Of a DNA stretch of 43,955 nucleotides, positions 1 to 43,955 are shown piece after piece. The notes beneath the pieces are model-generated. The model made no database searches. It saw only the letters and a program-made list of their open reading frames with translations, and was not told the DNA's origin. Position 1 is the first letter of the stretch. Each line of letters opens with the position of its first letter. This DNA comes from Pseudomonadota bacterium (lineage in GTDB: Bacteria > Desulfobacterota > Anaeroferrophillalia > Anaeroferrophillales > Tharpellaceae), in NCBI GenBank assembly GCA_015486505.1, contig WFRP01000313.1:1-43955 (forward strand), written 5' to 3'. The translations under genes were made by a program, and so were the position numbers.

Positions 1-337
1 CAGTTGAAAAAAGCTGTCGAAAAAAAACAAGAAAATAACCTGTAAGGTACTAATGCGGGAACAGATCCCGCAACCCAAACGGAGCCTTGCGGCCCGCACC
101 CAAGGGCACTTCCGATGGTCGCAAATAAGTGCTCTTATCAGAACATTTTCTTGTTTTAAAACAAGAAAATAACCTGTAAGGTACTAATGCGGGAACAGAT
201 CCCGCAACCCAAACAGGGCTTTTTCGGCCCGCACCCAGGGGCACTTCCGATGGTCGCAAATAAGTACTCTTATCAGAACATTTTCTGATTATTAAATCTT
301 GTTTTTTGGTGCAGAAAATAACCTGTAAGGTACTAAT
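1..337 (-). repeat. H-M modular repeat array A, truncated by the window edge. Read on +: partial H (loop L3), M(long), H(L2), M(long), H(L1). Two full units.
   Basis: Direct reading. GAAAATAACCTGTAAGGTAC-TAAT-GCGGGAACAGATCCCGC-AACCCAAAC...CGCAAATAA-GTRCTCTTATCAGAACATTTTC occurs twice (54-150 and 189-285). The array ends with an H arm plus TAAT at 314-337. Strand given is that of the better-folding (F) orientation. Confidence 0.9.
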
Positions 338-495
338 GGTGCTCTGGTTTCTGGTGGTTGCCGGTCTGGGCTTGGTGATCTCGTTCAAAAATGGTATATT
401 TTTCTAGTCGTATTTTTTGACTATTCAGCCGTATTGTTATTCCTGGTCCAAACAGTTTCGAACAGTTTCGGGGTCAGGTCAGGATTCGGGGTTTC

Positions 496-1313: not shown

Positions 1314-2087
1314 TCAGAGGATTGCCGGAAAAACGACAATTCGCAACTCGCTGAGCGCGAGAATGGTTGAGAAAATCAAGATAAAGCTCAGGAAAAAGTA
1401 GTCCTGAGCGCGGTCGTGATACTCGGTCAAACTGTGAAAACGGCCGTCAAAGCCGCGGCAGAGCATAGCTTTATGGACGCGCTGGGCGCGCTCGGCCGAA
1501 CGGACAAAGAGCATTCCCAGCAGATTGGCATAAGTCTTATAGCAATGGAGCGAAGTATTCGGCTGAAAATTGCGGATTTTGGCCGCTCTTAACATAGTCT
1601 GGAGTTCATCTTCAATCAGAAAAATATAGCGGTAGGTAATCAGCAGCAGTAAAACCAGTTTGGCCGGCAGTTTCAAACTGTGCAGAGCGTGGGCGAGATC
1701 GGCGGTGCTCATAGTCGAGATCAGGGCAAGAAAGATCAGCAGCATAGCCGAGGTTTTCAGCGTCAGCAGCAGGGCCAGGGTAATGCCGGTCCGGCCGATT
1801 TCAAGAAAAGAGTTCTGCCAGATGACCGGCCCGCCGCAGGTAAGCGGCAGCACCAGCCAGATAAGCAGGAGAAACCCGGCGATGACCAGAAGCCGGCGGC
1901 CGGCTTTGAAAAGATTGATCCGGGCCGCGATAATCAGGATGAATGACAGCGCCAGCGCCAGGAGCAGGGGCGGGATCGTCTGACACAATGCTACGACAAA
2001 GGCCAGAAAAATAGCCGCCAGAGTCCTGGTTCTGGGCGACAGTTTATGAATCGGGGATTCCCCGCGGCAGAAATTTTCCTGAAGCAT
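1314..2087 (-). CDS. cbiQ: ECF transporter transmembrane (T) component, CbiQ/NikQ
   Basis: Polytopic hydrophobic protein with the C-terminal Arg-rich CbiQ-like segment (RSAERAQRVHKAMLCRGF). It sits between the M-type and O-type components. ATG at 2087. Confidence 0.88.
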   Translation of the reverse strand: MLQENFCRGESPIHKLSPRTRTLAAIFLAFVVALCQTIPPLLLALALSFILIIAARINLFKAGRRLLVIAGFLLLIWLVLPLTCGGPVIWQNSFLEIGRTGITLALLLTLKTSAMLLIFLALISTMSTADLAHALHSLKLPAKLVLLLLITYRYIFLIEDELQTMLRAAKIRNFQPNTSLHCYKTYANLLGMLFVRSAERAQRVHKAMLCRGFDGRFHSLTEYHDRAQDYFFLSFILIFSTILALSELRIVVFPAIL

Positions 2088-2092
2088 ATTTC

Positions 2093-2352
2093 TAATGCGG
2101 GAACTAACTCCCGCAACCCAAACAGGGCTTTGTGCCCCGCAAATAAGTACTCTTATCAGAACATTTTCTTGTTTTTACAGTTGAAAAAAGCTGTCGAAAA
2201 AAACAAGAAAATAACCTGTAAGGTACTAATGCGGGAACTATCCCGCAACCCAAAAGAAAGTTTTCGGCCCGCAAATAAGTACTCTTATCAGAACATTTTC
2301 TGGATATTAAATCTTGTTTTTTGGTACAGAAAATAACCTGTAAGGTACTAAA
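2093..2352 (-). repeat. H-M repeat array B. Two full units with short M modules and loops L3 and L1. It fills the whole spacer between the nikL-like gene and cbiQ.
   Basis: Read on +: TAAT-GCGGGAACTAACTCCCGC...CGCAAATAA-H(L3)-TAAT-GCGGGAACTATCCCGC...CGCAAATAA-H(L1)-TAAA. The stop codon of the upstream gene (2348-2350) lies inside the terminal H arm junction. Confidence 0.9.
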
Positions 2353-3051: not shown

Positions 3052-3079
3052 GGGGTCAGGCTTGACTTATGGGTATTTG
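3052..3079 (+). repeat. S motif copy 2 (GGGGTCAGGCTTGACTTATGGGTATTTG)
   Basis: Same 27-28 nt as 496-523 and the reverse complement of 38807-38834. Lies in the spacer between cbiM and the nikL-like gene. Confidence 0.7.
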
Positions 3080-3703: not shown

Positions 3704-3720
3704 TATTTTTTATCTCTTTA

Positions 3721-3819
3721 GGGTACCTCGAAAAATTGTCTTTTTGTCCAATTACTGCGCTGGTTAAAAATTTTAACCGCCTTGTACTTAAACAGAAATC
3801 CTGATTTTTCAAGACACCC
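3721..3819. mobile_element. U-family MITE-like element, short variant (U3), flanked by a perfect TTTA/TTTA duplication
   Basis: Termini are GGGTACCTCGAAAAAT...GATTTTTCAAGACACCC (imperfect TIR). The 5' half aligns with U1/U2 (…AAAAATTGYCTTTTTGYCCAATWACTGCG…). TTTA at 3717-3720 and 3820-3823. Confidence 0.7.
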
Positions 3820-4756: not shown

Positions 4757-4811
4757 GTAATTGCCGGACCTGCAGGGCCGGAGTAATATGAAAAAATATG
4801 GTATTGCTCAA

Positions 4812-4952
4812 GGGAACCTCTAAAAATTGCTCTTTTGCCCAATAACTGCGTTAGTCTCAAATTTTAATCCTCAAAATACTCAATGTATTCATCCGGTTAA
4901 AATCTTCGACTGCCTTGTTCTTGAACAAAATTTCTAATTTTTAGAGGAACCC
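4812..4952. mobile_element. U-family MITE-like element (U1), 141 bp, flanked by a TCAA/TCAA duplication. Inserted in the Ni/Co operon leader.
   Basis: About 93% identical by eye to the reverse complement of 13740-13879. TIR is GGGAACCTCTAAAAATT / AATTTTTAGAGGAACCC. TCAA at 4808-4811 and 4953-4956. Confidence 0.8.
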
Positions 4953-8153: not shown

Positions 8154-10205
8154 ATGAAAATACAAAGAATCAGCTTTCGAATTTTACTTCCGGCATTTAT
8201 AATAACTATAGTATTTTCCATCGTTCTCTATTATGTCGCGAGCTCTAAACTCACCGGCATTATCGAGCAAAATCTCAGCCAAAACACCAATGACAAAATT
8301 GCGGATATTGCCGTCAGCGAAAAACGTATCGCCAACGCCATGCTGGCTCAGGCCGCGCTCTTCAGTCAGGCTCAAGCAATTCAAAATGCGTATCTTACAG
8401 CCTACAAAGGGGATATCCACAACGAAAAAGACCCCGAGATGGAGAAAGCCCGTAAACAGCTTAGAGACTACTTTGATTCGATTGAAAAAGGTTACATGAA
8501 GACCAGTCAGGGGAAGCATTTTCGCATACATTTCCACCTGCCCCCGGCCCGCAGTCTTTTGCGCTTATGGAAAACCAAACAACATAAAAGTGATGATTTA
8601 AGCTCTTTCCGTAATACCGTTAAAACTATCAGCCAGGGTGAGCACACACCGCTGGCCGGGATTGAAATCGGCCGGGGCGGTTTTGCCATTCGCGGGCTGG
8701 CCCCGGTAATCACCGATTCCGGCCGTTATCTGGGTTCGGTCGAGGTGCTTTCCTCGTATGATCCCCTGGTTAAATACGGCATCTCCAATAAACATGAATA
8801 TATAGCCGTGTATATGAAAAAAGAGTTTCTGCCGATTGCAACCCGGCTGCATGATCGCAGCAAACATCCGTTGGTTGGTGAAAATTTCGTCTATGTTTCC
8901 TCAACCGATAAGGTTGTCACCGATAAACTTATAAGTCCGCAAATCCTTGCTTCCGGCAGCCAGAATATCAATATGCGGCGCATCGGTGATTTTTTTACCG
9001 CGGTTTTCCCGGTCAAAGATTTCAGCGGCAAAGTGATCGGGGTCATGGCTTATGGCTACGATGCGGCTAATGTCTACTCAACTATCACCAAAGCTAAAAT
9101 CAGCATCCTGATGATATGCTTAGCCCTTATTTTATGTATTTTAATCCCGCTGTTACTGACCGTACGTTCAGTCACTAAACCCATCAACCTGACCACCGAG
9201 ATGGTTAAAGATATTGCCGAAGGCAATGGCGATCTGACCAAGCGACTGACCATCTTCAAACAGGATGAAATCGGTGAAATGTCCGGTTATTTCAATCTCT
9301 TTCTTGATAAACTTCAGTCCTTGATCCGCCAGATTAAAGATAATTCCAATGGCATCAATTCGGCATCGAACGAATTTCAGGAGGTTGCGGACCGGATGTT
9401 CAAAAGTGCTCAAGAGAGCTCGGAACGCGCGCATACGGTCGCGACCGCGGCCCAGGAGATGAGCAGCAATCTGCATGGTGTTGCCGCCGCGATGGAAGAG
9501 TCAAGTACGAATACAAATCTGGTGGCAGCCGCAACCGCAGAGATGTCTTCAACTATAAATAATTTATCCGACAATGCCCAAAAAACTCAGACTATATCCA
9601 ACTCCGCGGTTGAAAAAGCCCAAGCCGTATCCCGCCAGATGGCCGGGCTGGGTGAAGCTGCGGTCGGTATTGGTGAAGTCCTGGCAACGATTACCAAAAT
9701 TTCCGGACAGGTAAACCTGCTCGCCCTGAACGCAACCATTGAAGCCGCCCGCGCCGGGGAGGCCGGTAAAGGTTTCGCGGTGGTCGCCGGTGAAATTAAA
9801 ACTTTGGCGAATCAGACCGCTGAAGCCGCTTCCGAGATTCGGACTAAAGTTGAAGCGATTCAGAAAAGTTCCAGCGAAAACATTGCCGGCATCGAGGATA
9901 TCTCAAATATTATTGCCGAGATTAATGAGTTGATCGATTTGGTTACGGACGCCGCCGGAGAACAATCCCAGGCCACCGCGGAGATCACCGGCAGTATTAC
10001 TCAGGTTTCCCGGGGTATTCTGGAAGTTAATGAAAATGTTAATCAAAGTTCTTCAGTCGCGGAAGGGATTACTCGTGACATCGCCGGCGTGGACAACTCG
10101 GCACAAAGCGTGAGAAATAACAGTGATCAACTGAAAATTAACGCTGAGAACTTAAGCAGAACGGCGGCTCGGCTTGGCGCTGTAGTCGGCGAATTCAAAA
10201 TATAA
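8154..10205 (+). CDS. Methyl-accepting chemotaxis protein with a Cache-type sensor and HAMP
   Basis: Conserved MCP signalling hairpin [32 protein letters not shown]-terminal TM, a Cache-like region and a second TM. Confidence 0.93.
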
Positions 10206-10207
10206 GT

Positions 10208-10718
10208 GTAACTATTCAGCCAAATTTTACCCCCCCCCACCTTCTGGAGGGGGCGGGGGTGGTTTTTCGTAAGTGGTTGCGGAAACGATTTCGTTGTTTT
10301 TCGGAAGCGAGCGGGAGCCCATTAGTACCTTACAGGTTATTTTCTGCACCAAAAAACAAGATTTAATAATCAGAAAATGTTCTGATAAGAGTACTTATTT
10401 GCGGGTCGCAAGGCCCCGTTTGGGTTGCGGGATCTGTTCCCGCATTAGTGCCTTACAGGTTATTTTCTGTACCAAAAAACAAGATTTAACAGTCAGAAAA
10501 TGTTCTGATAAGAGTACTTATTTGCGACCATCGGATTGCCCCTGGGTGCGGGCTGAAAAGCCCTGTTTGGGTTGCGGGAGCTGTTCCCGCATCGGCATTG
10601 CAACTGTTTGAGCGTAGCGAGTTTTGCAAGGCGGGCGCAGCGAGCGTAAGGAAAAACAGAAATCTTAACGCCTGGCGGAGAAAAACCGCGCCCGACCCCG
10701 GATTCGGCTGAATAGTTA
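10208..10718 (+). mobile_element. T-family TIR element, long composite form (T1), carrying H-M array C internally
   Basis: Perfect 14-bp termini GTAACTATTCAGCC (10208-10221) and GGCTGAATAGTTAC (10705-10718). Left and right parts are collinear with the short copy at 16190-16367. The extra 325 bp (10314-10638) is bracketed by AGCGAGCG at 10306-10313 and 10639-10646. No clear TSD. Confidence 0.75.
10321..10594 (+). repeat. H-M repeat array C. Unit 1 is 10321-10443 (short M) and unit 2 is 10444-10590 (long M). Both have loop L1.
   Basis: ATTAGTACCTTACAGGTTATTTTC...GAAAATGTTCTGATAAGAGTACTTATTTGCG...GGGTTGCGGGAKCTGTTCCCGC occurs twice. The array ends in ATCG. Confidence 0.9.
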
Positions 10719-10807
10719 CTAAATAATTTTCAAAAAAAATCATTAAAGACATAAAAACAACCACTTATAACAATTCAGAAAAACTTTCTCACCCGGGAAC
10801 ACAAGCT

Positions 10808-11785
10808 ATGACCAATGAGTTTGCTGCTTTTGAACAGTGTCAAAACCCGGCGGTCCGTCTCGACCGGCGCCGACAGGATCTGCACAAGGTTGTCAATCAA
10901 CTGACCAAAACCTGCCTCAGCGGGGAGTGCTTTGAGCATCTTGCCCCGCAGCCGATCCCGTTGCGGGACAATACGATTGCCATTGTCAAACAGGCGCGCA
11001 AGCTGCTTTTCCCCGGTTATTTCACCCAGACGCGGATAGACCCGGTCAATCTCAAATACTATCTCGGCCAGGAGCTTTCCGAACTCCATGAGATGCTCGG
11101 CAATCAGATTATTCTGGCGATCCGCCATGACTGTCTGCGCTACAATGACAGCTGTGTCAACTGCGAAGAGCGCGGCCTCGACGCGGCCTCGGATTTTGTC
11201 AAAAGACTCCCGGAACTCCGGCGGATTCTGGCAACCGATGTCAATGCCGCGATGGAAGGCGACCCGGCCGCGAAAAGTGTTGATCAGGTAATTTTCAGCT
11301 ACCCCGGCCTTTTTGCCATCTCGATCTATCGCATGGCTCACGTTTTACATCATTTGCAAGTTCCCCTGCTGCCGCGGATGATGACTGAATACGCCCATAA
11401 CCTGACCGGAATCGACATCAATCCCGGCGCTCATATCTCTGAAAGTTTTTTCATTGACCACGGTACCGGCATCGTCATCGGCGAAACCACAAAAATCGGC
11501 AAAGGGGCGCGCATCTATCAGGGAGTTACTCTAGGCGCGCTGTCACTGCCGCGGGATGCCGGCGAGAGCCTGCGCCACACCAAACGCCATCCGACAATTG
11601 AGGATGACGTTATTATCTATGCCGGAGCTACGATTCTCGGCGGTAAAACCACAATCGGCGCCCGTTCGGTTATCGGCGGCAATGTCTGGCTTACCGCCTC
11701 GGTGCCGCCCGACACCAGGGTTCTGCAGAAAAGCCAACCGCCGCTTTATTGTGAAGACGGCGTCTGTGTCCCCCAAAACCAATAG
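10808..11785 (+). CDS. cysE: Serine O-acetyltransferase (long-N-terminus form)
   Basis: GDPAAKS, YPGLFAISIYRMAH, hexapeptide region IDINPGAHI...IDHGTGIVIGETTKIG, and KRHPTIEDDVIIYAGATILGG. Confidence 0.9.
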   Translation: MTNEFAAFEQCQNPAVRLDRRRQDLHKVVNQLTKTCLSGECFEHLAPQPIPLRDNTIAIVKQARKLLFPGYFTQTRIDPVNLKYYLGQELSELHEMLGNQIILAIRHDCLRYNDSCVNCEERGLDAASDFVKRLPELRRILATDVNAAMEGDPAAKSVDQVIFSYPGLFAISIYRMAHVLHHLQVPLLPRMMTEYAHNLTGIDINPGAHISESFFIDHGTGIVIGETTKIGKGARIYQGVTLGALSLPRDAGESLRHTKRHPTIEDDVIIYAGATILGGKTTIGARSVIGGNVWLTASVPPDTRVLQKSQPPLYCEDGVCVPQNQ

Positions 11786-11787
11786 TC

Positions 11788-12049
11788 TGATGCGGGAACA
11801 AGCCCCGCAACCCAATCGGGCATTTTCGGCCCGTACCCAGGGGCACTTCCTCTGATCGCAAATAAGTACTCTTATCAGAACATTTTCTGATTATTAAATC
11901 TTGTTTTTTGGTGCAGAAAATAACCTGTAAGGTACTGATGCGGGAATAATCCCCGCAACCCAATCGGGCCTTTTCGGCCCGCAAATAAGTGCTCTTATCA
12001 GAACATTTTCTTGTTTTTTCAAACCGAAAATAACCTGTAAGGTACTAAT
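11788..12049 (-). repeat. H-M repeat array D. Two units. Read on +: M(long)-H(L1)-M(short)-H(L4).
   Basis: It begins 2 nt after the cysE stop codon. Both unit junctions carry TGAT instead of TAAT, and both M modules carry the AACCCAATCGGG variant. Confidence 0.9.
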
Positions 12050-13425: not shown

Positions 13426-13740
13426 ATGCCGACAAAAAATTTACCTGAAGATATCGAGCGCGATTTTACCGCGGCGGCGGCCCTGCACCAGCGCGCCGTA
13501 GCGGATTACACAAAATGCCTGGAATTTAACAAAACCCTGGCCCGGCTCCTGGATAAACTGGAAGATTGCGATCAGCTTAAACTGGCGAACAAGGTAATGG
13601 GCATCCTGATTGACTGCAGTCCCAAAGAAGGCGGTCACTGCGATCAAGCCACGCAGATCGACAATAAAATCAATTCCTTGACAAAAACCTGGAGGAAAGA
13701 AAAAAATAAAGAGACCGGATCAATAATCCGGCCTCTTTAG
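13426..13740 (+). CDS. Hypothetical small protein (104 aa)
   Basis: Open frame with an ATG but no convincing SD and no recognised motifs. Its 3' end runs into the U2 flank. Confidence 0.35.
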   Translation: MPTKNLPEDIERDFTAAAALHQRAVADYTKCLEFNKTLARLLDKLEDCDQLKLANKVMGILIDCSPKEGGHCDQATQIDNKINSLTKTWRKEKNKETGSIIRPL

Positions 13741-13879
13741 GGTTCCTTTAAAAATAGAAATTTTGTTCAAGAACAAGGTTGTCGAGGATTTTAACCGGAG
13801 GAATACATTGAGTATTTTGAGGATTAAAATTTGAGACTAACGCAGTTATTGGGCAAGAGAGCAATTTTTCGAGGTTCCC
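13740..13879. mobile_element. U-family MITE-like element (U2), 140 bp
   Basis: Reverse-complement copy of U1 (4812-4952). Flanks are TTTA (13736-13739) and TTAA (13880-13883), a 3/4 match. Confidence 0.8.
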
Positions 13880-13908
13880 TTAAGATTTTGAATTGCCGAC
13901 AGACCCTG

Positions 13909-16152: not shown

Positions 16153-16189
16153 AAAAAAACCCTGGCAACGTAATTTCAATAAAAAATGG

Positions 16190-16367
16190 GTAACTATTCA
16201 GCCGAATCCGGGGTCGGGCGCGGTTCTTCTCCGCCAGGCGTTAAGATTTCTGTTTTTCCTTACGCTCGCTGGGAAAAACAACGAAATCGTTTCCGCAACC
16301 GCTTACGAAAAAACCACCCCCGCCCCCTCCAGAAGGTGGGGGGGGTAAAATTTGGCTGAATAGTTAC
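16190..16367 (-). mobile_element. T-family MITE (T2), 178 bp, with perfect 14-bp TIRs and a perfect 8-bp target-site duplication. Inserted between dctP and dctQ.
   Basis: GTAACTATTCAGCC (16190-16203) and GGCTGAATAGTTAC (16354-16367). AAAAATGG occurs at 16182-16189 and 16368-16375. Collinear with the two ends of T1, in inverse orientation. Confidence 0.88.
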
Positions 16368-16380
16368 AAAAATGGTTTTA

Positions 16381-18654: not shown

Positions 18655-20907
18655 TTGCCTGACTCCGCCTTCGATACCGAACAAAACCTTAAAGATCACG
18701 CCCGCAAAGATCGCAAAAAACGCCGTCGGGAAATAATTATCATTTCCATTCTGATAATTGTTATCAGCGGCCTTTTCTATATCGAGATAAATCTGCCCCA
18801 CCTGCCGACCGATATGCCGATTATGGGCAATGTCATCGTTTTCGCCCTGATCAACATAAATATCATCCTGCTGCTGCTGCTGATTTTTCTGATCCTGCGC
18901 AACCTGATAAAACTTCTCCTCGAAAGAAAACGCAGGATCGTCGGTTTTCGCCTGCGCACCAAACTGGTAGTCGCCTTCATTTCGCTCTCACTTTTCCCGA
19001 CAATTCTGCTTTTTGTGGCAGCTACCGGCTTTATCCGTTTCAGTCTTGACAACTGGTTTTCAACCAACTTTGAAGCTTCACTCGACGCCTCGATGACGGT
19101 GGCCCAGGAATACTACGACACCTTCCGGCAACAGAACCAGACCCTTGCTGAAGCACTCGCCAAAGAAATAACCCGGAAAGGATTGATGATCAGCACGCAG
19201 AAAGAGCTTCTGCAGAAACTTACCGAAACTAAACGGGCCGAATACTCTCTCGACGCAATCGCCGTCTTCCCGCGCCCCGGCCCGCCTCTGGCCTGCGCCT
19301 TAAGTTTAAGCCCGAACCTGAGTAAGGAAAATTTCCAGGCCGGCATCAACCAGGATGAGCACCTGGAAAAACTGTCGAAAATCGTCCCGCTGCCGGACGG
19401 CGCTACCATGATTCAGGGCTGGGCCCCGATCCTCTCGACCTGGCAGGAAAATAAAACCGTTGCCCTGGTCCTGGCCAGCAAACAGATTCCCGCAGGCCTG
19501 GCGCAGAAGATGCGGGACATCTCGGAGAAATATACGGCCTACAAAAAAGCCAAAAGCATGGAGCTCTACATCAAAAGTAACTATATCCTGACTTTTGTTC
19601 TGATTACGGCCCTGATTACTTTTATCTCGATCTGGTTCGGTTTCTTTCTGGCCAAGGATATCACGGCCCCGGTCCACGAACTTGCGCTGGCGACCCGGCA
19701 GATTGCCGACGGCAACCTTGATTTCACCATCGATATGGTCGCCAGCGACGAACTCGGCATTCTGGTCGACTCCTTCAACAGTATGACCGAAAACCTGCTT
19801 GAAAGCCGCCGGGAACGGGAACTCGCCCATCTCGAAATGAGCCGCATCAGCTCCGAGCATGAAAAGCGCCGGCATTACATCGAAACCATCCTGAAAAACA
19901 TTACGACCGGGGTTATCGCCCTGGACCGCACCGGCTGCATTACGACCATCAACCAGGCCGCTGAAAATATTTTTTCCTTCGCCGCCAACACGATTCAAGG
20001 GAAAAATTACCGGGAAGTTTTTCACCAGGAACTGATCCAGAAAATCCGCCAATACTTTAAGGAAAGCCAGAACGAGCCTGACAAGAAAAGAAATCTTGAG
20101 CTGACCCTGCCTGACCGCAACCGTTACGTTTCCATAAGTTTCAGCCCCTTTATCGACGAAACGGAAGCCTACATCGGCATGCTCATAATTATCAACGATA
20201 TGACCGAGCTCGTCAAAGCCCAGAAAACCGTAGCCTGGCGCGAAGTCGCCCGCAGGATTGCCCACGAAATCAAAAACCCGCTTACCCCGATCGCCCTGTC
20301 GGCGCAGCGCATCCAGCGCAAATACAGCGATTTGACCGAAGAAGGCGACCATGTTTTAAAGAATTGCACCACCACAATCGTCCGTCAGGTTAACGATCTG
20401 AAATCTCTGGTTAACGAATTTTCCAGTTTTGCCCGGATGCCCCAGGCCAAACCGACCCTGCAGGATCTAAACCTGCTCATCGACGAATCTCTGGTTCTCT
20501 ACCGCCAGGGACACCCCCGGGTTGAATTCACATTTGCACCCGACACCCGGATACCCAGATTTTACCTGGATCAGGAACAGATCAAACGGGTTATGACCAA
20601 TCTGGTTGACAACGCCCTGGCCGCATTGAAAAACGTGGATTCCGCCAAAGTCTGGATTGCCACCAGACTTGACAAAAGTCTGGAAATGGTTATTATCGAG
20701 CTCAACGACAACGGCCCGGGCATGGATGAAAGGACTCAGGCCCGCCTGTTCGAGCCTTACTTCTCCACCAAAAAAAGAGGTACCGGCTTAGGCCTGACCA
20801 TTGTTAAAACGATTATCAACGACCATCGCGGCTTTATCCGGGTCCGTGAAAATCACCTGAAAGGCACCTGCTTTGTTATTGAGCTGCCGATCATTGTCAG
20901 CATTTAG
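18655..20907 (+). CDS. ntrY: Sensor histidine kinase NtrY-like (4 TM, HAMP, PAS, HisKA, HATPase)
   Basis: H-box AHEIKNPLTPIALSAQRI, and ATP-lid motifs DNGPGM and GTGLGLTIVK. TTG start 3 nt after the upstream stop. The stop codon TAG (20905-20907) lies in the TTTAG start of repeat array E. Confidence 0.85.
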   Translation: MPDSAFDTEQNLKDHARKDRKKRRREIIIISILIIVISGLFYIEINLPHLPTDMPIMGNVIVFALININIILLLLLIFLILRNLIKLLLERKRRIVGFRLRTKLVVAFISLSLFPTILLFVAATGFIRFSLDNWFSTNFEASLDASMTVAQEYYDTFRQQNQTLAEALAKEITRKGLMISTQKELLQKLTETKRAEYSLDAIAVFPRPGPPLACALSLSPNLSKENFQAGINQDEHLEKLSKIVPLPDGATMIQGWAPILSTWQENKTVALVLASKQIPAGLAQKMRDISEKYTAYKKAKSMELYIKSNYILTFVLITALITFISIWFGFFLAKDITAPVHELALATRQIADGNLDFTIDMVASDELGILVDSFNSMTENLLESRRERELAHLEMSRISSEHEKRRHYIETILKNITTGVIALDRTGCITTINQAAENIFSFAANTIQGKNYREVFHQELIQKIRQYFKESQNEPDKKRNLELTLPDRNRYVSISFSPFIDETEAYIGMLIIINDMTELVKAQKTVAWREVARRIAHEIKNPLTPIALSAQRIQRKYSDLTEEGDHVLKNCTTTIVRQVNDLKSLVNEFSSFARMPQAKPTLQDLNLLIDESLVLYRQGHPRVEFTFAPDTRIPRFYLDQEQIKRVMTNLVDNALAALKNVDSAKVWIATRLDKSLEMVIIELNDNGPGMDERTQARLFEPYFSTKKRGTGLGLTIVKTIINDHRGFIRVRENHLKGTCFVIELPIIVSI

Positions 20908-21381
20908 TTCTGCACAAAAAAACAAGATTTAATAATCAGAAAATGTTCTGACAAGAGTACTTAGTCAACTTTATGACTTGATGTAAGTGGTAGTTTTTAC
21001 AGGTTTTGTTGTGTTTTTTTGCAAATGATTTCATCTTGTTACTCTTTGCGCCTTTGCGTCTTTGCGGGATAACTTCTTTTTGTCTCCCGCCAAGACGCAA
21101 AGACGCAAAGAAAAACCGCGGGCAAATGATTTTATCAATAAATATCAGTTGTTTAACCTAACTCAGAAAGTTGAGGTACTTATTTGCGACCATCGGAAGT
21201 ACCCTTGGGTGCGGGCCGAAAAGGCGCGATCGGGTTACGCAATTTGTTCCCGCATTAGTACCTTACAGGTTATTTTCTGCACAAAAAAACAAGATTTAAT
21301 ATCCAGAAAATGTTCTGATAAGAGTACTTATTTGCGGGCCGCAAGGCTTCGTTTGGGTTGCGGGATTTGTTCCCGCATTAG
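20905..21381 (+). repeat. H-M repeat array E. Two units; the first is decayed (5' H arm deleted, 3' hairpin degenerate) and interrupted by MITE-V. It fills the ntrY-ntrX spacer.
   Basis: TTTAG-TTCTGCAC… lacks 16 nt of the canonical ATTAGTACCTTACAGGTTATTTTCTGCAC. The unit resumes at 21176 (GTACTTATTTGCGACCATCGG…). A second, intact unit spans 21244-21376. The array ends in ATTAG, 10 nt before the ntrX ATG. Confidence 0.88.
20965..21174. mobile_element. MITE-V, a 210-bp TIR element nested inside an H-M unit
   Basis: Termini are TCAACTTTATGACTT… and …AACTCAGAAAGTTGA (8 nt perfect, about 13/15 overall). GTACTTA is duplicated at 20957-20963 and 21176-21182. It carries the REP-V palindrome at 21045-21110. 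Confidence 0.75.
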
Positions 21382-21391
21382 GTAAAAAATT

Positions 21392-24723
<3,332 letters not shown>

Positions 24724-30307: not shown

Positions 30308-30433
30308 AATATTTTGCCTTAAGCTCAACTTCATAACTTAAGATAACACGTTGATTTACAAGCTAATTTTCATTTGATAGCAATAGCATTTTCATAATGC
30401 CTCCATAACTCGGCGAATATATTTCAAAATATC

Positions 30434-30572
30434 TAATGCGGGAACAATCCCCGCAACCTAATCGGGCCTTTTCGGCCCGCACCCAAGGGCACTTCCGTTG
30501 GGCGCAAATAAGTACTCTTATCAGAACATTTTCTTGTTTTTTCAAACCGAAAATAACCTGTAAGGTACTAAC
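30434..30572 (-). repeat. H-M repeat locus F, a single unit (long M, loop L4) between glcD and glcF
   Basis: TAAT-GCGGGAACAATCCCCGC-AACCTAATCGGGCCTTTTCGGCC-CGCACCCAAGGGCACTTCCGTTGGG-CGCAAATAA-H(L4)-TAAC. It ends 16 nt before the glcF ATG. Confidence 0.9.
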
Positions 30573-34800: not shown

Positions 34801-34957
34801 CGCGCAGATGCAGGCCGCCGCCTACGCCCTGGAAAAAGCCGCCAGGGAACAGGATAAAGCCCTGATCAAGCAAACCCGGGAAGATATGGAAATGGAATTT
34901 GCGATTTTAAGTGAAATCCTCAAAGACGAAATCGCCGATGCCGACAGTGACTTCTGA
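31856..34957 (+). CDS. Hybrid sensor kinase (coiled coil, PAS, GAF, HisKA, HATPase, degenerate receiver-like spacer, REC, Hpt)
   Basis: H-box [29 protein letters not shown] ([10 protein letters not shown]…[10 protein letters not shown]), an acidic linker, and Hpt HSIKGSAGS. The start is uncertain (ATG at 31856 or TTG at 31796). Confidence 0.88.
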
Positions 34958-35340: not shown

Positions 35341-36750
35341 CTAACGAAAAATCCCTTTTTCAATCAAAGCCTGCAGAGTGCGCTGAACCGCGCCCCGGTT
35401 GCGCTCAACCGTGGCCTGAGCTTTAAGGCCGGCACTTTGGATAAACTCCCGATCATTAAGACAACGACCCAGCAGAAGCGCAAGTTCTCGCCCATCGGCA
35501 ACCGGCAGACCGCCGCCCGCTTCATCAAGAAGTTCGAAACCGTCTTTAAAATTGGCCACATACGGACCATGAATTACGGCTTTGGCAAAGAGAGCCGCTT
35601 CCAGGGGGTTATGGCCGCCGATGCCGGGAACCAGAGTTCCGCCGATAATCGTAAAACCCGCTCGGCGATAAAAATGAATCAGATCGCCTAAGGTATCGAG
35701 CAGTAAAACGGCCGGAACTTTAACCGGCCCTGAAACCAAACTATCTTTAATTTCTGAAAAACGCAGATAATCAATTCCCCGGTCATCCAGCAGTTTCGCG
35801 ACCGCGGCAAAACGCTGCGGATGCCGCGGCGCCAGCACCAGAGACAGCGGTTTATTATTGTTATTATTACTGCCGTTATCAGCAATATTTTCATTCCAGG
35901 CGGAAAGTATCAGCTCTTCTTCACCAGGATGGGTCGACCCGGCGACCACTAATTGAATTTCCGGTCCCAATAATGTCCGAGGGCCGATTTTTAATTTCCG
36001 CTCCGGCGGCGGCAGCAGATCAAATTTAAGATTACCGCTGAAAATAATTTTCTCCACCGGGGTTCCGAGCCCGGCAAACCGGGCCGCCGAAACCCGGTCC
36101 TGCACCACCACAACATCCGGTACCCCGAACATCTTTTTAGTAAAGAAATTAAAAATCTGGTAGTTGACAAAACTTTTCCGCGAGAGCCGGGCGTTGACCA
36201 GGGCCAGCGGCAGCCGCCGGCGCCGGACACAATCAAACAGATTCGGCCAAAGCTCGGTTTCGGCAATAATCAGGGCGGCCGGCTGAAAATAACGAAAGAA
36301 AAGCGCCCAGCAACAGGGCAGATCCAGCGGCATCAGCACCACTTTTGCTTCCGGGAAAGCCTGCCGCGCCGTCTGCCGCCCGGTCAGAGTCATGGTAGTA
36401 AGCAAAAGGGCGGTTTCGGGATACTCCGCCTGCCGGGCCCGCAGCAGCGGGACCAGCATCCGCACTTCCCCCACGGAAGCCCCGTGAAACCAGAGCGAAG
36501 GACAAACTTCAGCCCCCCGCTCGGAATGTGGCACCGCCGGCCGCCGGAAAAACAGCCCCCGGAAACCGAAAAACCAGCCGTAAGTAACCAGCCGTTCACC
36601 CAGCCCTTCGAGATTTCCCTGCCGCCGATACAAATACCATAACAGCAGCGGCCAGAATAAAAAGAGTAGAATACTTAGAATAATATTGTAAACAATAAAC
36701 AAAACAGTTACCAATTTCCTGATATTTAACCGGTAAAACCGAGACGACAA
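35341..36750 (-). CDS. waaA: 3-deoxy-D-manno-octulosonic acid (Kdo) transferase
   Basis: N-terminal TM anchor and the WFHGASVGEV motif characteristic of KdtA/WaaA, with a GT-B fold C-terminus. The only in-frame start upstream of the TM is the TTG at 36750, so the start is uncertain. Confidence 0.85.
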   Translation of the reverse strand: MSSRFYRLNIRKLVTVLFIVYNIILSILLFLFWPLLLWYLYRRQGNLEGLGERLVTYGWFFGFRGLFFRRPAVPHSERGAEVCPSLWFHGASVGEVRMLVPLLRARQAEYPETALLLTTMTLTGRQTARQAFPEAKVVLMPLDLPCCWALFFRYFQPAALIIAETELWPNLFDCVRRRRLPLALVNARLSRKSFVNYQIFNFFTKKMFGVPDVVVVQDRVSAARFAGLGTPVEKIIFSGNLKFDLLPPPERKLKIGPRTLLGPEIQLVVAGSTHPGEEELILSAWNENIADNGSNNNNNKPLSLVLAPRHPQRFAAVAKLLDDRGIDYLRFSEIKDSLVSGPVKVPAVLLLDTLGDLIHFYRRAGFTIIGGTLVPGIGGHNPLEAALFAKAVIHGPYVANFKDGFELLDEAGGGLPVADGRELALLLGRCLNDREFIQSAGLKAQATVERNRGAVQRTLQALIEKGIFR

Positions 36751-38861: not shown

Positions 38862-39368
38862 ATGGAAATTGCAATTTTGACAACTCTCTGTCTGTTCGGC
38901 ATAATCGGCACGCTGGTGCCGGTTATGCCGGGTTGCGGCCTGATTTTTATCGGGGCTTTCGCTTACGCCCTGCTGACAAATTTTCAGATTATTTCCGGCC
39001 CGGAAGTCCTGGTCCTGCTCGGTTTGATGCTGGCCGGCTCAATCGGCCAGTTTTTCATCACCAGCCTCGGGGCCCGGGTTATGGGGGCGGGGAAATATGG
39101 GGTTGTCGGGGCTTTCTGCGGATTTTTTTTCGGCCTGATCTTTATTCCGGCTCCGGGCGGCTCTCTGATCGGTGCCTTTGCCGGGGCCTTCATCTGTGAG
39201 CTGACCTTTGCCGTTAAAAGTCAGCGGGAAAGCGTCAAGGCCGGAATCGGCGCGGTTATCGGCGCAATCTTCAGCCTCTTTTTTGAGTTTTTCATCGGCA
39301 TAATTATGATCGCCTACACCCTGTCAATCATCTGGCACAACCCAATCCCGCCGACTATCATTCTCTAA
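38862..39368 (+). CDS. Small integral membrane protein (DUF456-like)
   Basis: 168 aa with four Gly/Ala-rich TM segments. GGTGGTG lies upstream of the ATG. The stop codon TAA (39366-39368) is the TAAT junction of repeat locus H. Confidence 0.75.
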   Translation: MEIAILTTLCLFGIIGTLVPVMPGCGLIFIGAFAYALLTNFQIISGPEVLVLLGLMLAGSIGQFFITSLGARVMGAGKYGVVGAFCGFFFGLIFIPAPGGSLIGAFAGAFICELTFAVKSQRESVKAGIGAVIGAIFSLFFEFFIGIIMIAYTLSIIWHNPIPPTIIL

Positions 39369-39504
39369 TGCGGGAACAGCTCCCGCAACCCAAAAGAAAG
39401 TTTTCGGCCCGCACCCAAGGGCACTTCCGATGGTCGCAAATAAGTACTCTTATCAGAACATTTTCTTGTTTTTTCAAACCGAAAATAACCTGTAAGGTAC
39501 TAAT
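39366..39504 (-). repeat. H-M repeat locus H, a single unit (long M, loop L4)
   Basis: TAAT-GCGGGAACAGCTCCCGC-AACCCAAAAGAAAGTTTTCGGCC-CGCACCCAAGGGCACTTCCGATGGT-CGCAAATAA-H(L4)-TAAT. It shares the AAAAGAAAGTTTTC variant with unit 2 of array B. Confidence 0.9.
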
Positions 39505-39534
39505 AGCAAACAATCGAATGCAAGCAGTTATAAC

Positions 39535-39620
39535 CTCCCGCAAAGACGCAAAGGCGCCAAGAAAACCGAAAACGATCAACGTTACCTGAAACCCTTTGCG
39601 TCTTTGCGTCTTTGCGGGAG
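39535..39620. repeat. REP-V palindrome (arms TCCCGCAAAGACGCAAAG… / …CTTTGCGTCTTTGCGGGAG, about 40-nt loop)
   Basis: The same approximately 26-nt arm occurs as an inverted pair in the opposite arrangement at 21045-21110, inside MITE-V. Confidence 0.75.
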
Positions 39621-39659
39621 ACATTAAGATGAATAGTTAGAAATCTTACAACTTAAGGC

Positions 39660-43693: not shown

Positions 43694-43782
43694 AATCTCC
43701 TGTGCCCACCTTTACTCCTTGTAAAAACTCACCCGGCATTCTTAGCAGTCATCCCCTGATTTTGCAAGCATGAAAAAAATCG

Positions 43783-43894
43783 GTAACTATTCAGCCAAAA
43801 TTTCCCCCCCCCACCTTCTGGAGGGGGCGGGGGTGGTTTTTCGTAAGCGGTTGCGGAAACGATTTCGTTGTTTTTCGGAAGCGAGCGGGAGCCC
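43783..43894 (+). mobile_element. T-family element, left part (T3), continuing into an H-M array and the window end
   Basis: GTAACTATTCAGCCAAAATTTCCCCCCCCCACCTTCTGGAGGGGGCGGGGGTGG…GAAGCGAGCGGGAGCCC is nearly identical to 10208-10320. Confidence 0.8.
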
Positions 43895-43955
43895 ATTAGT
43901 ACCTTACAGGTTATTTTCGGTTTGAAAAAACAAGAAAATGTTCTGATAAGAGTAC
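43895..43955 (+). repeat. H-M repeat locus I (an H hairpin with loop L4, truncated by the window end)
   Basis: ATTAGTACCTTACAGGTTATTTTC-GGTTTGAAAAAACAA-GAAAATGTTCTGATAAGAGTAC. Confidence 0.9.

Follow-up and report, generated by a model that had tools for sequence, protein, structure and literature searches.

Introduction

Repetitive extragenic palindromes (REPs) are defined by a hairpin with the 5' tetranucleotide GT[AG]G at its foot (PMC6006769). They are situated near the 3' ends of open reading frames (ORFs), and those between convergent genes lie less than 20 bp from both ORFs (Di Nocera et al., PMC3733652). GTAG REPs frequently supply, at their termini, the TAG stop codon to the flanking ORFs (PMC3733652). 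Palindrome-associated transposable elements (PATEs) are defined by the absence of inverted terminal repeats, by palindromes near both termini, and by the absence of a target duplication (PMC3119063). The present study concerns a stretch of 43,955 nt with a GC content of 50% (contig WFRP01000313.1 of assembly GCA_015486505.1, from a bacterium placed in the Tharpellaceae), hereafter the window, that contained nine arrays of one repeat family with a total length of 2,288 nt (5.2% of the window), corresponding to 16 repeat units per 44 kb. The unit consists of an AT-rich hairpin (A module) followed by GC-rich hairpins (G module) and ends in TTAG. Comparison with repeat-free relatives suggests that these repeats are probably a non-autonomous mobile element that integrates 3' of TTAG, lands on stop codons, and stacks into arrays.

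The family resembles GTAG REPs, REP doublets forming hairpins (REPINs), and bacterial interspersed mosaic elements (BIMEs), which are connected with REP-associated tyrosine transposases (RAYTs), in its small, structured, intergenic repeats, its high copy number, and its mosaic clusters. As in REPs, a TAG-containing tetranucleotide was found at the hairpin foot, a short GC-rich imperfect palindrome recurred in many intergenic copies, and the copies stood for the most part between genes that were convergent or shared one direction, no more than about 20 bp from the 3' ends of ORFs. However, the tag was TTAG and not GT[AG]G; the unit, 113-153 nt long, joined two unrelated hairpin modules in a constant pairing instead of being a palindrome of 20-40 nt; the stacking was direct and head-to-tail, unlike the inverted pairs of REPINs and BIMEs; and no RAYT gene was linked to the repeat in the approximately 1 Mb searched.

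The family also resembles the PATEs derived from IS200/IS605, as it lacked terminal inverted repeats (TIRs), contained palindromes near both ends, and was not long enough to code for a protein. The left-flank target, which is oriented and 4 nt long, and a related 4-mer at the element end correspond to the rule known for the IS608 type. The junctions were consistent with a PATE-type insertion without target duplication, although a 4-bp duplication of TTAG gives the same junctions. In contrast to IS200/IS605 PATEs, the repeat could be connected with no parent insertion sequence encoding TnpA or TnpB in the DNA examined, and its orientation in the window was unbiased; its left hairpin began at the boundary, whereas that of the IS608 type starts approximately 20 nt inside. 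Miniature inverted-repeat transposable elements with TIRs (TIR-MITEs) of the Correia/ERIC type (target TA), the Tourist/PIF type, and the IS5 group (target TTA/TAA or YTAR) are likewise small, abundant, and AT-targeting, often occur between the genes of operons, and can be transcribed along with them, but these carry TIRs and symmetric target duplications.

Stop-adjacent behaviour is therefore already known from REPs. What is new is the family itself (TTAG tag, bipartite unit, direct arrays), its occurrence in an uncultured lineage, and an occupancy of approximately 31% of tolerated sites. Also new are empty sites that directly show that the stop is the target, and the use of CTAA/TAA stops via the same motif on the other strand.

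Empty Sites and Conserved Protein Ends in Relatives

Orthologues were compared, and the contigs of relatives were read around them (NtrY 71-87% identical, NikL 77-80%, and DUF456 85-92%). Loci from relatives and from other metagenome-assembled genomes (MAGs) are given L numbers. Four insertion sites were recovered in the empty state, namely:

nikL-cbiQ: empty in L112, ..gggaccTTTAG|AAAC|atg; window, ..gaaccTTTAG[258 nt]AAAT|atg
DUF456/histidine kinase (HK): empty in L114 and L115, ..tcTGA|TAGCAAACA.., and in L116, ..ctCTAA|..; window, ..tct[CTAATGCGGG...GGTA]CTAATAGCAAACA
HK/waaA: empty in L114, GGCAATTAAATC|cta; window, GGCGATTAG[3 units]ATT|cta
Upstream of glcF: empty in L114, CATCTAA|CTCATAAAATTGACATA|atg; window, ATAT[CTAATGCGGG...GGTA]CTAACTCATAAAATTGACATA|atg

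At all four sites, the filled sequence equalled the empty sequence plus [core+TTAG]n placed directly after a pre-existing TTAG or CTAA. The target is an oriented TTAG, the TTAG is regenerated, and the flanking proteins are preserved in both orientations.

A preliminary description of this DNA had ascribed three stop codons to repeat sequence. If taken to mean that new gene ends were created, this was contradicted for nikL, DUF456, and NtrY by repeat-free relatives, in which the stop codons occupied the same positions. The C-terminal position of NtrY was the same in four relatives (L108-L111), and that of NikL was the same as in its nearest relatives. DUF456 was 168 aa long in nearly all close homologues, and its stop in relatives fell at the same codon, as TGA or TAA. 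In L020, where a repeat adjoins hisD, the HisD Pfam profile was covered to position 411/411. Because repeat-free relatives stop at the same codon, the stops pre-existed and represent a landing site rather than a newly supplied end. The ORF ends as called in the window matched those of the orthologous proteins, and the gene identities proposed earlier (cbiO/Q, nikL, cbiM, cysE, an ntrY-like HK, ntrX, glcD, a glcF-like gene, a hybrid HK, waaA, and DUF456) were confirmed by NCBIfam and Pfam.

The comparison of the same gene pairs in relatives lacking the repeats, which the preliminary description had proposed, also yielded short ancestral spacers. The ntrY-ntrX pair was separated by 24 or 37 nt or showed a 4-nt ATGA overlap, glcD and glcF were 15 and 34 nt apart, nikL and cbiQ were 4 or 6 nt apart or overlapped, and the spacers of convergent pairs measured 17-23 nt. 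A metagenome scan with NtrX returned only relatives of at most 60% identity, none with the repeat, and these gave the typical ntrY-ntrX spacing. Since the spacers in relatives are short, the arrays have split tight operon junctions at nikL-cbiQ, ntrY-ntrX, and glcD-glcF, as had been proposed. In the window, the nikL-cbiQ gap has increased from 4 to 262 nt, and the ntrY-ntrX gap from between an overlap and 37 nt to 484 nt; the original upstream context of cbiQ, the 3' end of nikL, is now 258 nt distant. A fourth pair, dctP-dctQ, was indeed split, but by a different element, which is a classical TIR-MITE.

Structure of the Repeat Unit

The boundaries of the unit were defined by single-copy insertions at 16 loci from other MAGs. 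The A module consists of TACCTTACAGGTTATTTTC, a variable loop, and GAAAATGTTCTGATAAGAGTAC, whereas the G module reads TTATTTGCGGGCC...GGGTTGCGGGAnnnnnTCCCGCA and is followed by TTAG; the longer stretch reads TTATTTGCGGGCC..GGGTTGCGGGAnnnnnTCCCGCATTAG, and a long G-module variant contains an extra segment of approximately 26 nt. The 3' end of the unit is ..CCCGCATTAG, the reverse complement of which is CTAATGCGGG. As read, the ends are TTAG|TACCTTACAGG... on the left and ...TCCCGCATTAG on the right, and neighbouring units within an array share a single TTAG. The left flank was (A/T)TTAG in 21 of 23 cases, with A or T as the base preceding TTAG. The right end was CATTAG in 17 of 23, and the remainder were the one-base variants TTAA, TCAG, TTAC, and TCGG; the left and right 4-mers did not match in five single copies. 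The orientation of TTAG relative to the asymmetric element was constant. The preliminary description had suggested TTA/TAA as the target; its explanation of the attraction to stops by a target site holds, but the motif is an oriented 4-mer, TTAG (CTAA on the other strand). TTA/TAA (3 nt) or TA as the target was rejected, as the G was conserved on both sides and A or T preceded TTAG.

No terminal inverted repeats were found in the unit, in which the best terminal match (8/20) was at the level of shuffled sequence (P = 0.36-0.98). Both modules folded strongly as single-stranded DNA (z = -3.6 to -8.0), and the folding energies of the top and bottom strands of the unit were similar, thus providing no argument either way. 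One stem pair of the A hairpin was changed from A:T to G:C in 7/21 copies, which is a compensatory pair. The terminal hairpin GCGGGA-N5-TCCCGC and the outer stem TGCGGG/CCCGCA were present in every copy. The tag at the hairpin foot was TTAG (CTAA-T-hairpin on the other strand), and GTAG or GTGG was never seen. The window had no Rfam match at gathering thresholds, and the unit was absent from the viral contigs and PLSDB plasmids searched.

All arrays were head-to-tail with a single orientation within each array and no inverted pairs, and they were composed of members of different subfamilies. Different subfamilies standing side by side indicate repeated independent insertions rather than tandem duplication, and duplication or slippage was rejected as the origin of the arrays on the same grounds. 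Two copies in the window differed at only 1/127 nt, which indicates recent activity.

Arrays in the Window

The arrays and their parts are listed below with coordinates in the window and strand:

1..336, minus: array of approximately 2.4 units that continues past the window start; complete units at 50-187 and 184-336, left-flank TTAG at 333-336 (reverse complement)
2092..2351, minus: array of 2 units of different subfamilies between nikL and cbiQ; empty site in L112
10322..10595, plus: array of 2 units after CCCATTAG, within a TIR-MITE (~10207-10728) between a methyl-accepting chemotaxis protein (MCP) gene and cysE
11787..12048, minus: array of 2 units between cysE and a GGDEF response-regulator gene; right end with the TCAG variant
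20904..20963, plus: TTAG including the ntrY stop (20905-20907), then an A module minus its first 16 nt
20964..21175, no strand assigned: 212-nt insert of a different family, nested at the A/G junction
21176..21381, plus: rest of unit 1 (long G module, TTAG at 21255-21258) and complete unit 2 (21255-21381)
30433..30571, minus: single unit, long-G variant, in the glcD-glcF spacer; empty site in L114
34969..35337, plus: array of 3 units, each from another subfamily, between the hybrid kinase gene and waaA, which are convergent; empty site in L114
39365..39503, minus: single unit at the DUF456 end, with the DUF456 TAA (39366-39368) within the unit-end CTAA
43893..43955, plus: first part of a further unit, preceded by the CCCATTAG in a second copy of the TIR-MITE and continuing past the window end

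Five arrays lay on the minus strand and four on the plus strand, and the cysE-GGDEF and glcD-glcF units were antisense to transcription. The distances between array ends and coding boundaries given in the preliminary description for cysE, waaA, the hybrid kinase, cbiQ, ntrX, and glcF were correct within 1-2 nt. The first array is located 209 nt downstream of the cbiO stop. At nikL, the TAG (2350-2348, minus strand) belongs to the left-flank cTTTAG|TACC, so that the earlier reading of it as the TAG of TTTAG|TACC at the 5' end of a unit was correct; the final TTAG of this array ends 4 nt before the cbiQ ATG (2087), which thus lies 5 nt after TTA. The cysE-side array ends 1-2 nt from the cysE stop (TAG, 11783-11785). 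The left-flank CTAA (30568-30571) of the glcD-glcF unit lies 17 nt before the glcF ATG (30589). Between the convergent genes, a TTAG is located 11 nt from the hybrid kinase stop (34955-34957), and the array ends 3 nt from the waaA stop (35341-35343). The DUF456 TAA was situated, as described, inside CTAATGCGGG, which on the opposite strand reads as the unit end CCCGCATTAG, and the second CTAA (39500-39503) is followed by TAGCAAACA, which is the sequence directly 3' of the DUF456 stop in relatives.

The ntrY stop was a TAG at 20905-20907, as reported, but the next sequence was TTCTGCAC from the interior of the A module and not TACC, and the first 16 nt of the module (TACCTTACAGGTTATT) were gone. 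A 10-nt spacer, GTAAAAAATT, separates the end of unit 2 (21381) from the ntrX ATG (21392), and the N-terminus of NtrX was conserved among relatives. The ribosome-binding strings assigned to the two downstream genes had been exchanged, as cbiQ has ATTAGAAATATG and ntrX has ATTAGGTAAAAAATTATG. The idea that these sites are partly repeat sequence holds only for the 4 nt that adjoin the original flank, and these copy the target.

Several ORFs of 88-112 codons were located mostly or wholly in arrays, namely 50-388 (minus), 2046-2336 (plus), 10273-10611 (plus), 21062-21385 (plus), and 39358-39624 (minus). The ORFs called inside arrays are almost certainly spurious.

An AT-rich stretch of 125 nt (30308-30432) extends from the glcD stop to the repeat unit. 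Its counterpart was missing in L108, in which the spacer was 15 nt, and the equivalent space in L114 held a TIR-MITE.

Association with Stop Codons

All TTAG/CTAA sites in the window were classed as stop-overlapping, intergenic, or coding. The repeat occupied 9 of 29 permissible sites (~31%) and none of 71 coding sites (p = 5e-6). Among the permissible sites, 3 of 6 that overlapped a stop and 6 of 23 that were purely intergenic were filled (Fisher p = 0.34). When the single-copy insertions from other MAGs were pooled with those of the window, 8 of 22 independent arrays had a stop codon in a terminal TTAG/CTAA, whereas the motif alone predicts an overlap of 14-21% (binomial p = 0.008-0.07). The stops overlapped on the left side of an array were those of L020 hisD, L023, nikL, and ntrY, and those on the right side were L004 (the same insertion as L011), L012, L018, and DUF456; all of these terminate long real ORFs. 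The motif together with purifying selection accounts for most of the stop pattern, and the indication of an additional pull toward stops is weak. That array ends lie near genes is in large part trivial, because the ancestral spacers were only 4-37 nt long.

Proposed Insertion Mechanism and Alternative Explanations

The following course of events would account for the observed junctions. A unit would integrate on the 3' side of a TTAG that is already there, directly adjoining it and always in the same orientation to the motif, and would bring its own TTAG at the 3' end. As TTAG contains TAG and CTAA contains TAA, some targets would be stop codons preceded by T (TAG) or by C (TAA), and an insertion at such a site would leave the protein unchanged in either orientation. 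Selection would purge intragenic insertions, and the survivors would be those on stops and in short spacers, either 3' of genes or within operons. The regenerated 3' TTAG beside a hairpin would then serve for the insertion of later copies, often of other subfamilies, giving rise to head-to-tail arrays. The junction of an excised circle would read ..CGCATTAG|TACC.. Mobilisation in trans by a single-strand HUH/Y1-type enzyme (IS200/IS605 TnpA or RAYT-like) is proposed tentatively, at somewhat less than even chances, because the unit lacks terminal inverted repeats, carries a hairpin at each end, and has an oriented 4-nt target. The proposal also draws on the fit to the description of PATEs, on the IS200/IS605 rule of insertion 3' of a short oligonucleotide, and on the resemblance to REPs with their TAG-containing tetranucleotide.

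Several observations weigh against this account. The ntrY stop in relatives was TAA or TGA and not TAG; we infer a pre-existing ATT-TAG at this stop in the lineage of the window, where the junction is atypical and the unit 5'-truncated. The enrichment at stops beyond the prediction from the motif is marginal. When the window and the loci (~1 Mb) were searched by tblastn with IS200 TnpA and the RAYT of E. coli, no Y1 or RAYT gene was detected, nor was an autonomous parent element seen in the ~1 Mb examined. In the 10-44 kb stretch, in which the sign of the GC skew is constant, 4 arrays were on the plus strand and 3 on the minus strand; although the sample is small, such mixed orientation misfits the strong lagging-strand bias of IS608 and ISDra2. 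The empty sites fit an insertion at TTAG without duplication and a 4-bp duplication of TTAG alike. Furthermore, the unit at 11787-11938 carried the same TCAG variant at both ends, which mildly favours duplication, since that requires one mutation instead of two.

In an alternative, a MITE mobilised by a DDE transposase (e.g., IS5-like, target YTAR) generates a 4-bp TTAG target-site duplication. The presence of TTAG on both sides of every unit and of a single copy in the empty sites, the TCAG pair at 11787-11938, and the mixed orientation, which is normal for DDE elements, are all in agreement with it. We nevertheless regard it as unlikely, given that the unit lacks the terminal inverted repeats that DDE transposases need, that a palindromic-class YTAR target should yield both orientations as well as CTAG and TTAA, that five single copies have non-matching left and right 4-mers, and that the true TIR-MITEs of the window differ, with the TIR GTAACTATTCAGCC and an 8-bp duplication. 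An integron attC or VCR-type origin was rejected, since no R''/R' core sites (RYYYAAC...GTTRRRY) were present and the flanks were syntenic housekeeping genes in relatives lacking the repeat. Chance, by which abundant intergenic repeats would merely be juxtaposed with gene ends, is hardly credible: the very short ancestral spacers do force any inserted array to end near genes, and the Fisher test on the window alone is compatible with it, but the invariant left-flank TTAG, the four exact empty sites, and the contrast between coding and permissible TTAG sites (0/71 vs. 9/29) reject it as regards the target motif.

Two further explanations were considered. The repeat could supply new stops and ribosome-binding sites and so reshape gene ends. 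In the cases with reverse orientation (DUF456, L004, L012, and L018), the TAA/TGA used is the unit's own CTAA/CTGA if insertion took place 3' of TTAG, and at ntrX the AG of the unit end and the flanking G make up an AGG, which lies 10-13 nt before the ATG. On the other hand, repeat-free relatives have stops at the same codons, cctTTAG was already present at nikL in L112, and protein lengths were unchanged; the explanation is contradicted for the end positions of nikL, DUF456, and NtrY, and is very improbable as a whole. Selection may instead have kept the stop position for a function at the RNA level, such as 3' stabilisers or ribosome stalling at stops within about 15 nt of a hairpin, with differential expression inside operons as the outcome. 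Liang and Deutscher have reportedly observed that REPs affect translation when they lie within 15 nt of a stop codon. Such a function is compatible with integration 3' of TTAG and rather doubtful, if less so than the alternatives above. It agrees with the pooled proportion of arrays on stops (8/22 vs. 14-21% expected), with one orthologous insertion kept in two MAG species (L004 and L011), and with a structure conserved through a compensatory pair. REPs, too, have been reported mostly between same-direction and convergent ORFs, near 3' ends (PMC3733652). However, units occurred in both orientations relative to transcription, the test on the window alone was not significant, there was no Rfam match, and close relatives without arrays do fine. 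A promoter and terminator scan of the ntrY-ntrX spacer (20700-21600) found nothing above shuffled sequences.

For the TTAG-directed insertion preferred here, a more speculative possibility is that the repeats represent an undescribed HUH-type or mechanistically new replicator, with a 4-nt target that is a stop on either strand and with self-extending arrays, perhaps co-opted for uncoupling translation within operons; we consider this a minority prospect.

Other Repeats in the Window

The TIR-MITE family, with the TIR GTAACTATTCAGCC(R)AAT and an internal C-run/G-run hairpin, was found at 16189-16368, ~10207-10728, and 43782-43955, and in L114 at ~1920-2160. The dctP-dctQ copy (16189-16368) was flanked by an 8-bp duplication, AAAAATGG, and the true TIR-MITEs in the window carried duplications of 7-8 bp. 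The two other copies in the window were interrupted by the A/G element after the internal CCCATTAG and were 95% identical across that junction, and an uninterrupted copy filled the glcD-glcF spacer of L114. The 212-nt insert at 20964-21175 had imperfect inverted ends, (G/C)TCAACTTTnTGA, and a 7-bp duplication, GTACTTA (20957-20963 and 21176-21182); its central hairpin with three copies of CTTTGCG recurred at 39535-39619 beside the DUF456 array. A third small repeat family, GGGTACCTCGAAAAATTG..., was present at 3714-3751, 4805-4941, and 13733-13884, including one inverted pair of 135 nt with 94% complementarity. In addition, a 28-nt direct repeat, GGGGT(T/C)AGGCTTGACTTATGGGTATTTG, occurred with 96% identity at 496-523, just downstream of cbiO, and at 3052-3079, between cbiM and nikL.

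Distribution and Age

An exact-pattern scan covering one genome per species yielded at least 25 matches, and two of those listed were chance matches inside genes. Among the matches listed, the repeat was found in MAGs labelled Deltaproteobacteria, Thermodesulfobacteriota, Pseudomonadota, and Candidatus Tharpella aukensis; the NCBI taxonomy places Ca. Tharpella in the candidate phylum Tharpellota. In these other MAGs, the element was nearly always a single copy, again among the matches listed. The relatives contained 0-2 units per 18-22 kb, whereas approximately 31% of the tolerated sites were filled in the window. The same insertion with the same flanks was present in L004 (1252-1376) and L011 (7540-7664), which belong to different MAG species; Candidatus Tharpella aukensis is one of the two. 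Owing to this common insertion, at least some copies are old and vertically inherited.

At a distant ntrY-ntrX locus (L028, Ga0209164_1000064; NtrX 55% identical), a G-module-like sequence, CTAATGCGGGACATGCCGGCAACCCAATGAG, was located at 9816-9850, 12 nt after the kinase stop, which hints at related hairpin modules well outside the lineage. The repeat was often found at contig ends in other MAGs, and this suggests that the repeats break short-read assemblies.

Biological Significance

For annotation, these results mean that ORFs internal to arrays are to be treated as spurious and that MAG contigs tend to break at the repeats. For cbiQ and ntrX, translational coupling has likely been lost together with the upstream context that they originally had, and structured RNA would now directly follow the stops, as with REPs. 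The pairs nikL-cbiQ and ntrY-ntrX provide natural before-and-after pairs for effects on operon expression. The target and its regeneration explain how arrays are able to extend within tightly coupled operons while the proteins stay intact. They also offer a sequence-level account of why small repeats sit on stop codons, as the motif is a stop on both strands and the element restores the motif. What had been observed for GTAG REPs is in this way extended to a new family of bipartite units in direct arrays, from an uncultured lineage about which little is known.

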